Shown here: one piece after another, positions 18,201 through 18,340 of the stretch
How the letters are laid out: every line of letters begins with the position of its first letter
Numbering within the stretch: the first letter of the stretch is position 1
Origin: Minisyncoccota bacterium
GTDB lineage: Bacteria > Patescibacteriota > Minisyncoccia > Phycocordibacterales > UBA9973
DNA length: 64,000 bases
Assembly (NCBI GenBank): GCA_942491275.1
Contig: CALNZI010000009.1
Coordinates: 21,938 to 85,937, forward strand
Reading direction: 5' to 3'
Position numbers and translations under genes: made by a program
The notes under the pieces: model-generated
The model's database searches: none
Told to the model about the DNA's origin: nothing
Seen by the model: the letters and a program-made list of their open reading frames with translations, nothing else

Positions 18201-18312
18201 TGGTCGGGATGCTGGGAATCTCGCCTCACGGTCGCTGGTACTTTTCCATCTTCGATAAGGAAAAGTCTTTCAATCCCCAGGCGTAAGCAAAGAAGTTTGC
18301 TTACTCACCCCG
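18201..18312 (-). ncRNA. Unclassified tRNA-like chimeric RNA, copy Y, with the tRNA-Pro acceptor/T-stem half and an encoded CCA
   Basis: The minus strand reads CGGGGTG-A-[GTAAGCAAA cttc TTTGCTTAC]-GC-CTGGGGATT-GAAAG-[ACTTTTCC ttatcgaagat GGAAAAGT]-ACCAG-[CGaCC gtga GGCG]-AG-ATTCCCAG-CATCCCG-ACCA. Confidence 0.55.
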
Positions 18313-18340
18313 AAATATCAAAATTTTAATTTTGATATTT
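18313..18340 (-). other. Perfect A/T-only 13-bp-arm palindrome separating tRNA-Pro from RNA copy Y
   Basis: AAATATCAAAATT TT AATTTTGATATTT. Confidence 0.6.

Follow-up and report, generated by a model that had tools for sequence, protein, structure and literature searches.

A family of structured elements behind tRNA genes of Patescibacteria with arms matched to the neighbouring tRNA

Introduction

Several described RNAs carry the acceptor and T-type stems of a tRNA around something other than its decoding part. The t-elements of plant mitochondria are acceptor/T-type minihelices that have no decoding function and lie in longer transcripts (PMC1920247), and mascRNA/menRNA (RF01684) is another non-decoding minihelix of this type. 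Transfer-messenger RNA (tmRNA), including its permuted form (RF04321), has acceptor and T-type stems round a large non-tRNA insert, and a 3' CCA. Here we describe an element of comparable outline in a 64,000-nucleotide stretch of contig CALNZI010000009.1 from a Minisyncoccota bacterium; this whole stretch is called the window below. The window holds two copies, one (copy 1) behind the tRNA-Pro(UGG) gene and the other (copy 2) behind the tRNA-Gly(GCC) gene. They are two members of a previously undescribed family of structured elements of ~90-130 nt, which is widespread in the candidate phyla radiation (CPR; Patescibacteria) and absent from Rfam 15 and the searchable literature. Each element consists of an inverted copy of the 3' end of its tRNA, interrupted by a hairpin (hp1), followed by a core and a direct copy of the same tRNA end.

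The CPR bacteria have tiny, streamlined genomes, and their RNA biology is poorly known. An abundant structured element would add a component to tRNA gene expression or genome dynamics across a very large share of bacterial diversity. The elements lie in tRNA trailers, are not called by annotation pipelines and risk being confused with tRNA pseudogenes or attachment (att) sites; a covariance model is now available for finding them.

Compared with tRNA (RF00005), copy 1 stacks an acceptor-type on a T-type stem, carries a discriminator A followed by CCA, and has the sequence of tRNA-Pro at positions 1-7, 49-53 and 57-73, whereas the D arm, anticodon arm and T-loop are absent and a 65-nt three-way junction stands in the place of the T-loop. 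The RF00005 model gave no match on the element, either in the window at E<=10 or at nine other loci at E<=5. The t-elements and mascRNA are cut by RNase P and RNase Z, which by analogy would also be the route of release of the present element. They are, however, eukaryotic or organellar, lack a conserved extra core and show no correspondence to an adjacent tRNA gene; on the element, the mascRNA model gave no match. As for tmRNA, the element lacks the G3.U70 pair (its pair 3-70 is G-C), the T-loop, the tag reading frame and the pseudoknots, and it is three times too short and multi-copy. The RF04321 model scored 24.5 bits (gathering score 47), and this match lies on the 3' half of tRNA-Pro and the adjoining palindrome, not on the element core.

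Among DNA elements, the attL/attR sites of integrative elements that target tRNA genes share with the family a direct repeat running from the T-loop through the tRNA 3' end into the flank, and tandem accretion behind one tRNA. The present "island" differs in that it is only ~100 nt long and has no integrase, one core occurs with the repeats of 22 tRNAs, and an inverted copy of the target is added. Repetitive extragenic palindromes (REP) and their mosaic elements (BIME), miniature inverted-repeat transposable elements (MITEs), integron attC sites and the CTX phage attP site are likewise short, non-coding and multi-copy, with covarying structure, arrays and high Watson-Crick content. In contrast to the present family, their terminal sequences are their own, they are not restricted to tRNA trailers, and they are served by known enzymes (RAYT, IntI, XerCD), none of which was found here in flanks of up to 3.5 kb. 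The CORE-SINEs (short interspersed elements) of vertebrates resemble the element in having a conserved central core and tRNA-related modules that differ between subfamilies, but they are eukaryotic dispersed retroposons with a tRNA-derived 5' promoter head and are neither beside nor matched to a particular tRNA gene. To our knowledge, arms that are templated on the adjacent tRNA have not been described for any bacterial RNA or repeat family.

Results

A family of elements with a covarying core

A structure-tolerant pattern scanned against the GTDB species representatives gave 58 matches, two of which were true homologues, in a Nomurabacteria metagenome-assembled genome (MAG; locus L171) and a Saccharibacteria MAG (L175). 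This pattern recovered only two homologues because the "loop" it held fixed is in fact a covarying helix. A complementary pattern, in which the apex of the second hairpin (hp2) was left free, was run on a metagenome collection and gave 82 loci with ~55 true members. Built from 38 members, a covariance model of the element then detected over 60 instances at these loci, divergent and tandem copies among them. All members other than those of L171 and L175 are on untyped metagenome contigs. In the window, the model matched copy 2 with 98.6 bits at 16577-16664(+) and copy 1 with 94 bits at 18219-18306(-), and the remaining matches were at noise level. The second copy, which had been suspected at 16568-16680, is therefore real, although its acceptor part is lost. 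The two window copies are 81% identical and both have the simplest core type.

The element was not found in IMG/VR viral contigs, INPHARED phages or PLSDB plasmids, and a 14-mer loop pattern gave only chance matches on viral contigs, where the hairpin context was absent. Rfam 15 searched with the cores of nine diverse members gave no family match even at E<=5; miRNA-like matches in L215 fall on the spacer palindrome. No prior description of the element family was found by literature searches. A route through synteny of the DUF134 gene, a neighbour of copy 1, gave no orthologous elements: in the relatives, DUF134 is followed directly by a Zip or thioredoxin gene, with no tRNA or element.

The core consensus is AG-(9 bp)-CUNC-(9 bp)-CG for hp1, followed by a three-way junction of GAAAGA, hp2, (G)UACC, a third hairpin (hp3) and GA. 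hp2 has a 7-bp stem, CUUUUCY/RGAAAAG, then a UU bulge, a 3-bp helix and a GNA triloop. The 3-bp helix occurs in four main versions, AUC/GAU, GCC/GGC, ACC/GGU and GUC/GAC, which covary. Therefore, the supposed 11-nt loop of copy 1, UUAUCGAAGAU, is paired, and is to be replaced by the bulge, the helix and the triloop. Over the 20 pairs of hp1 and hp2 in 42 members, 96.4% were paired, compared with 29-50% in slid controls. Double-sided changes occurred at 14 of the 20 pairs, and the observed values were attained in 0/500 shuffles. In hp2, the covariation is found in the upper helix and in two stem pairs that the search pattern did not fix. The unpaired bases of the junction and loops are conserved in sequence. 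hp3 is of three sequence types across the family, each a hairpin with a GUR-containing loop. Some variants have an additional small hairpin in the 3' strand (GCG-UACU-CGC and covarying versions), and in other variant subtypes hp2 is far longer.

No part of a tRNA resembles the core. The sequence-only reading had argued against a random pseudogene, and this holds because homologues with covariation exist in other genomes. A hammerhead-like three-way junction was considered and rejected, as GAAAGA/UACC/GA do not fit CUGANGA/GAA/H. tmRNA, signal recognition particle RNA, 6S RNA, RNase P RNA, the known small ribozymes, CRISPR repeats and retron RNA were also rejected; there was no Rfam match and their defining features are absent.

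A tetranucleotide, GUAC or GUAA, recurs in the second junction strand (G-UACC or GUGUACUG; GUACC at 18237-18241 of the window) and again in the optional hairpin, within its loop (GCG-UACU-CGC, GUG-UAAU-CAC). This tetranucleotide may serve in recognition or as a kissing motif.

The arms match the cognate tRNA

The match between the arms and the cognate tRNA is the key result of this analysis, and the CCA-ended, tRNA-like appearance of copy 1 is a local peculiarity. The 9 nt preceding GAAAGA (left arm) are the exact reverse complement of positions 57-65 of the cognate tRNA in 17 of 34 non-redundant cases and have at most one mismatch in 26/34. With non-cognate tRNAs as controls, the values were 0.2% and 4%, respectively. 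The four left-arm nucleotides that derive from the T-loop follow the T-loop variant of the tRNA: AAUC with UUCGAUU, AUUC with UUCGAAU, ACUU with UUCAAGU and AAUU with UUCAAUU. The 3' arm directly repeats the tRNA from position 56/57 on, over 12-27 nt in 19/34 cases. The copied segment passes from there through the T-stem and often on through the acceptor strand, discriminator and trailer. hp1 is inserted at the point where the T-stem part of the inverted copy meets the acceptor part.

The T-type closing stem is present in nearly all members, and an acceptor helix of at least 6 bp in about one third. CCA is encoded where the tRNA gene has none only in copy 1 and in L202. The state of the arms varies across the family, from perfect to decayed. 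The sequence-only reading saw in copy 1 a tRNA-Pro in which the D arm, anticodon arm and T-loop had been replaced by unrelated hairpins. These hairpins are instead the conserved core of the family, found with tRNAs of 22 anticodons. Since this core is shared and the arms match each own tRNA, copy 1 is not a one-off chimera of tRNA-Pro.

The elements follow tRNA genes

A tRNA gene on the same strand lies 33-211 nt upstream in 41 of 50 pattern matches. Five of the other nine are at contig ends: L186 (position 112), L243, L263 and two copies in L121, a short contig that duplicates the window and whose copies are counted among the 50. Among the rest, the L227 match is third in an array, L171 copy 2 and the L175 match stand behind remnants of tRNA 3' ends, and L232 is unexplained. 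The additional matches of the covariance model are likewise behind tRNAs or other elements. The linked tRNAs have 22 anticodons and represent 15 amino acids.

Two layouts were found. In the short-gap layout, hp1 begins 0-14 nt past the tRNA. In the long-gap layout, to which copy 1 belongs, a terminator-like hairpin comes between; after it, all 22 members of this layout have a 7-mer with no more than two mismatches to the tRNA acceptor. Elements also stand between two tRNAs of one operon, as Ser-element-Val in L199 and Cys-element-Leu in L210, L218 and L239, and therefore must be transcribed and excised together with the tRNAs. Arrays of two or three elements are found in L201, L227, L196, L209 and L240; those of a tRNA and three elements spaced by hairpins (L227, L201) resemble tRNA operons. 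The neighbours of the elements, 150 open reading frames (ORFs) within 3.5 kb of 41 loci on metagenome contigs, are housekeeping genes. Their 25 most frequent Pfam families include no integrase, transposase or reverse transcriptase.

Two loci show a cassette-like arrangement, in which two elements bracket one ordinary gene: an NTPase-like ORF in L171 (5263-6307(-)) and a 321-aa ORF in L175 (54-1422(+)). In both, a tRNA 3'-end fragment and a terminator precede the second element. As to the tRNA genes themselves, CCA is encoded in 3/34 in the window and 30 related loci, and the trailer after the discriminator starts with CAA or CAG in 25/34 (for example at 16564-16567 and 16223-16226 of the window). 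This start may be a conserved signal for processing, or what is left of a CCA.

Copy 1 is the most tRNA-like version

On the minus strand of the window, tRNA-Pro(UGG) is followed by its trailer CUACUU, a 28-nt palindrome and the 112-nt copy 1; the features of both copies are given in Table 1. The sequence-only reading had derived the ends of copy 1 from the adjacent tRNA-Pro, which sequence identity bears out. The first seven nucleotides, CGGGGUG, are those of tRNA positions 1-7, including the G5.U68 wobble. The right arm is a direct copy of positions 57-73, and copy 1 ends with GAUUCCCAGCAUCCCGA followed by CCA, which the tRNA gene does not encode. The 18-nt segment GATTCCCAGCATCCCGAC is an exact repeat of the tRNA-Pro locus. 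It spans the 3' part of the T-loop, the 3' strands of the T-stem and acceptor, the discriminator and one further base, and its last C is the first C of the CCA of copy 1. The inner left arm has two transitions compared with a perfect complement, both of which preserve pairing as G.U.

The fold described earlier for copy 1, in which an acceptor-like stem is contiguous with a T-like helix, was reproduced by RNAfold at -41.8 kcal/mol (z = -4.06; 0/200 shuffles as stable). It contains a 7-bp acceptor-like stem, the 9-bp hairpin with a CUUC loop, a 9-bp T-like closing stem, hp2 and a small hairpin with a GUGA loop, and thus an acceptor/T minihelix without anticodon or D arm. With its complete 7-bp stem CGGGGUG/CAUCCCG, A73 and encoded CCA, which most family members do not have, copy 1 is the most tRNA-like version of the element.

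ARAGORN found four canonical tRNAs in the window and no tmRNA. The Rfam 15 search of the element gave no match at gathering scores, nor at E<=10, and weak matches of permuted tmRNA and SpF41 fall on the real tRNA-Pro and the palindrome. The earlier statement that copy 1 could not be fitted to tRNA, tmRNA, SRP RNA, 6S or RNase P RNA is in line with these searches, and none of the four tRNA genes has an encoded CCA, as had been noted. The palindrome has the 13-nt arms ascribed to it; it is not composed of A/T only, since it has one C-G pair, and AA lies between its arms. It is the counterpart of the terminator-like hairpin that divides tRNA and element in the long-gap members, with equivalent spacer hairpins in L215, L240, L261, L208, L171 and L202. 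The acceptor 3' strand of the tRNA, the palindrome and the 5' strand of the element form a single extended imperfect inverted repeat. Long inverted repeats of the tRNA 3' end, hairpin and element 5' strand are also seen in L171, L215, L240, L261 and L202.

Table 1. Coordinates of the two element copies and the associated features in the window
Feature	Position	Strand	Evidence or remark
tRNA-Pro(UGG), cognate tRNA of copy 1	18347-18417	-	ARAGORN; Rfam tRNA model 59.9 bits
Promoter-like site upstream of tRNA-Pro	18507-18478	-	
Spacer palindrome AAATATCAAAATT-AA-AATTTTGATATTT	18313-18340	-	Sequence; 13-nt arms, AA between
Copy 1, whole element	18201-18312	-	112 nt
Copy 1, outer left arm CGGGGUG	18306-18312	-	Complementary to acceptor 3' strand
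Copy 1, hp1 (9-bp stem, CUUC loop)	18283-18304	-	All 9 pairs with double-sided changes, 42 members
Copy 1, inner left arm CUGGGGAUU	18272-18280	-	Inverted copy of tRNA positions 57-65
Copy 1, junction strand J1, GAAAGA	18266-18271	-	Invariant in recovered members; both search patterns demanded GAAAGA
Copy 1, hp2 (7-bp CUUUUCC/GGAAAAG, UU bulge, 3-bp AUC/GAU, GAA triloop)	18241-18265	-	
Copy 1, junction strand J2, UACC	18237-18240	-	After hp2 closing G, giving GUACC
Copy 1, hp3 region AGCGACCGUGAGGCG (small hairpin, GUGA loop)	18222-18236	-	
Copy 1, right arm A-GAUUCCCAG-CAUCCCG-A-CCA	18201-18221	-	18-nt exact repeat; sequence
tRNA-Gly(GCC), cognate tRNA of copy 2	16493-16563	+	ARAGORN, Rfam
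Promoter-like site, tRNA-Gly(GCC)	16398-16426	+	
Copy 2, short-gap class	16577-16680	+	Covariance model 98.6 bits; fold -30.8 kcal/mol, z = -3.3
Copy 2, hp1	16579-16600	+	
Copy 2, left arm AGGGGAAUC	16603-16611	+	Exact complement of tRNA-Gly positions 57-65
Copy 2, core	16612-16662	+	
Copy 2, right arm (C)GAUUCCC	16662-16669	+	Then decayed acceptor copy AACUCUAUACA

Turnover of the elements

Copy 1 was compared with its orthologue in L215, which has lost the 3' acceptor strand. The tRNAs are 93% identical and the elements 84.5%, and compensatory changes are found in hp1 and hp2. In L208, the acceptor helix of the element, CCGUCCU/AGGACGG, has drifted from that of its tRNA, CCGCACU/AGUGCGG, by compensatory double changes. 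Together with the G.U pairs kept in the left arm of copy 1, these comparisons are evidence of selection on resident copies for pairing independent of the tRNA.

Locus L202 (2713-5093; metagenome contig Ga0209125_1005001) comes from a relative and has the same four-tRNA cluster as the window. The element is present on two of the four tRNAs in the window and on at least three of the four in L202. At the tRNA-Pro site of L202, the arms and hp1 are as in the window, but the core is of the long-hp2 type. Behind its tRNA-Gly(GCC), L202 has a divergent element, whose arms match but whose core is different; the ATGACCTACTGGGT motif of this element is also present in L205 and L236, and the covariance model missed the element. 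In a filled/empty comparison of the window with L202, the sites were too diverged, and the "empty" Gly-GCC site of L202 proved to be occupied by this divergent element. Copy number, arrays and the differing occupancy of the two loci fit a repeat of REP/MITE type; the data contain no clean filled/empty pair.

Tandem partial 5' portions of tRNAs with promoter-like flanks stand beside an intact tRNA in L240 (upstream of tRNA-Lys), L210 (upstream of tRNA-Cys) and L192 (between tRNA-Ser and tRNA-Val). The tRNA loci of these genomes appear to be prone to partial duplication on both sides.

Discussion

In the reading that we prefer, to which we give a probability of about 50% from the sequence comparisons, the element would be an RNA that is made with its tRNA, freed by the tRNA-maturation enzymes and acts via its three-way junction, while its copies would be born by duplication at the DNA level. 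The RNA reading is supported by the location of elements inside tRNA operons, by covariation, by the conservation of unpaired bases and by the housekeeping genes around the elements. Transcription would proceed from the tRNA promoter, in short-gap members as a direct continuation of the tRNA and in long-gap members by read-through of the hairpin. RNase Z or trimming would act at the 3' end of the upstream tRNA, and RNase P would act either at a downstream tRNA or at the acceptor-like stem of the element itself where this is present. The released element would persist as a stable RNA and work through its three-way junction, most plausibly by binding a protein or a second RNA. New copies would arise from duplication of the tRNA 3' end in the DNA.

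Several observations weigh against this reading. The direct repeats often extend into the tRNA trailer, which is unselected sequence, and in L199 the repeat is 31 nt long and takes in three bases at the start of the next tRNA. At G.U positions of the tRNA acceptor, five of six elements have the Watson-Crick complement of the 3' strand, copy 1 of the window being the exception. In the tRNA-Ala-linked L204, G3.U70 is changed to A3-U70, and the T-stems of L201 and L240 are likewise "corrected". The 5' strand, taken at first as a copy of the 5' half of the tRNA, is across the family the outer part of the inverted copy of the 3' end. From the trailer-reaching repeats and the G.U "correction", templating at the DNA level is indicated. 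In addition, about two thirds of the members have no acceptor part or a decayed one, and in long-gap members a terminator-like hairpin with a T-run separates tRNA and element, while a separate promoter of the element was not found. hp1 and hp2 are 97% Watson-Crick, which is atypical for a selected RNA, and G.U is scarce (21 G.U versus 12 A.C over hp1, hp2 and the closing stem); this count was meant to separate RNA from DNA and to give the strand, for which the numbers are too small. Clustering of the cores by tRNA identity, examined for vertical co-inheritance, gave no signal (2/24 versus 1.15 expected), in a test that is noisy with so short a core. The occupancy of L202, with elements behind Pro, Gly-UCC (two copies) and Arg, is unlike that of the window. 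Finally, the minimum free energy fold of a 220-nt co-transcript of tRNA-Pro and copy 1 is strand-swapped (RNAfold, -86.9 kcal/mol, z = -7.2) and would disrupt the tRNA.

The main rival, which we regard as serious although less probable, is a non-autonomous selfish DNA repeat that spreads at tRNA 3' ends. The folded core would be needed in cis, for example as folded single-stranded DNA, with copying or recombination supplied in trans; formally this is like a folded integron attC or a folded CTX phage attP. Insertion would make an inverted and a direct duplication of the target, which is the tRNA 3' end starting in the T-loop, the arms would reproduce the duplex of tRNA gene positions 57-72, and the transcript would be a by-product. 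Such a repeat would account for a multi-copy family with tandem arrays, for direct repeats that go past the mature tRNA and for a left arm that complements the 3' strand and is not a copy of the tRNA 5' half. The strict Watson-Crick pairing, with G.U about as frequent as A.C, and cores not grouped by tRNA type also favour it, as do variable occupancy, the swapping of core subtypes at orthologous tRNAs of the window and L202, and arms that range from intact to decayed. The partial tRNA fragments near L240, L210 and L192, which show duplication-prone loci, and the terminator-like hairpins between tRNA and element point the same way. On the other hand, no enrichment of recombinases, transposases, HUH proteins or reverse transcriptases was seen within 3.5 kb of the 41 loci, the element is missing from the searched viral contigs, phages and plasmids, and a target duplication of ~17-31 nt is unusually long and variable. 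The arms fit 22 different tRNAs; therefore, the element cannot carry them, and a selfish repeat would require an unknown templating step. The compensatory evolution within resident copies (L208; window versus L215) suggests selection after insertion. The conserved unpaired junction bases and the retention of the element in streamlined genomes of ~1 Mb also speak against a selfish repeat.

It is unlikely, in our estimate, that the element is a cis-acting RNA switch for the maturation or folding of its own tRNA, in which the left arm would be antisense, the right arm a mimic and the three-way junction the sensor. The switch would alternate between the tRNA with a closed element and a strand-swapped fold that sequesters the 3' half of the tRNA. 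Exact complementarity of the arm to the cognate tRNA in half of the members, the strand-swapped fold preferred by RNAfold, the long inverted repeats in five loci listed above and the location in cis directly downstream are consistent with such a device. The argument is, however, purely thermodynamic, and co-transcriptional folding and quick processing favour the tRNA fold. Only some tRNAs have an element (2/4 in the window), and a regulator would hardly be expected to differ in occupancy among relatives as the element does. A switch does not explain the arrays of two or three elements either, and there is no known ligand or protein. Two further readings are essentially excluded by the covariation, the more than 60 homologues and the pair change in L204. 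One of them, that copy 1 is a decaying tRNA-Pro duplicate, a pseudogene or an integration scar without function or family, draws on the ends identical to tRNA-Pro and the decayed acceptor part of copy 2, and is refuted: more than 60 homologues, some in other CPR lineages, have the same core behind 22 different tRNAs, the covariation is strong, and the core, unmatched by the tRNA covariance model, is unlike any tRNA part. The other, an aminoacylatable minihelix that the cognate synthetase would charge as a non-decoding carrier for use outside translation, is very improbable. Copy 1 does have the acceptor stem of tRNA-Pro, A73 and CCA. This chargeable look is peculiar to copy 1, since about two thirds of the members lack the acceptor stem and CCA is almost never encoded. 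The identity pair G3.U70 has become A3-U70 in L204, and a charged minihelix is therefore unlikely as the function of the family. The element has no anticodon, and bacterial ProRS also needs the anticodon.

Apart from the choice between RNA and DNA, the element might be called "target-templated", one core being re-clamped at every tRNA by an inverted and a direct copy of the 3' end of that tRNA; we put this forward as a tentative description, more doubtful than not. Arms templated on the tRNA imply either an unknown mechanism of DNA duplication and insertion or an RNA built for pairing with its own tRNA. If the description is true, the former would be a new kind of DNA copying or recombination, with a folded single strand that mimics the duplex of positions 57-72 of the tRNA gene and inserts by means of it. 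The latter would be a new RNA that exchanges strands with the cognate pre-tRNA through an antisense arm and a mimic arm, sensing or gating tRNA maturation in CPR bacteria.

Other features of the window

The window was placed in the Patescibacteria because the homologues of the DUF134 gene are from Moranbacteria, Parcubacteria and Kuenenbacteria. The trailer of tRNA-Arg(UCG), at 16169-16189(-) before the gene for the CCA-adding enzyme, has an 11-nt exact match, TGAGGCGAGAT, to hp3 and the right arm of copy 1, beside a GUAC motif. Possibly a third element has decayed here, although the match is weak and 8/500 shuffles reach its score. Three genes lie within 5 kb of the two elements: a XerD-like tyrosine recombinase (12636-13610(+)), the CCA-adding enzyme (14539-16122(-)) and YraN (UPF0102), a protein with a nuclease fold (16968-17372(+)). 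YraN is near elements in 5/41 loci, which probably reflects synteny of the Gly-GCC/Arg-UCG tRNA cluster. An ORF of 601 aa at 19701-21506(+) has abundant CxxC pairs and repeated zinc-ribbon-like motifs, and no obvious function.

In a Moranbacteria relative (L124, 4001-5023), the DUF134 and Zip genes are 6 nt apart. In the window (17903-19282), a block of ~340 bp with promoter, tRNA-Pro and element lies between these two genes on the opposite strand, and in L215 the block of tRNA-Pro and element is placed after an HU gene. The tRNA-Pro gene and its element thus seem to relocate together.

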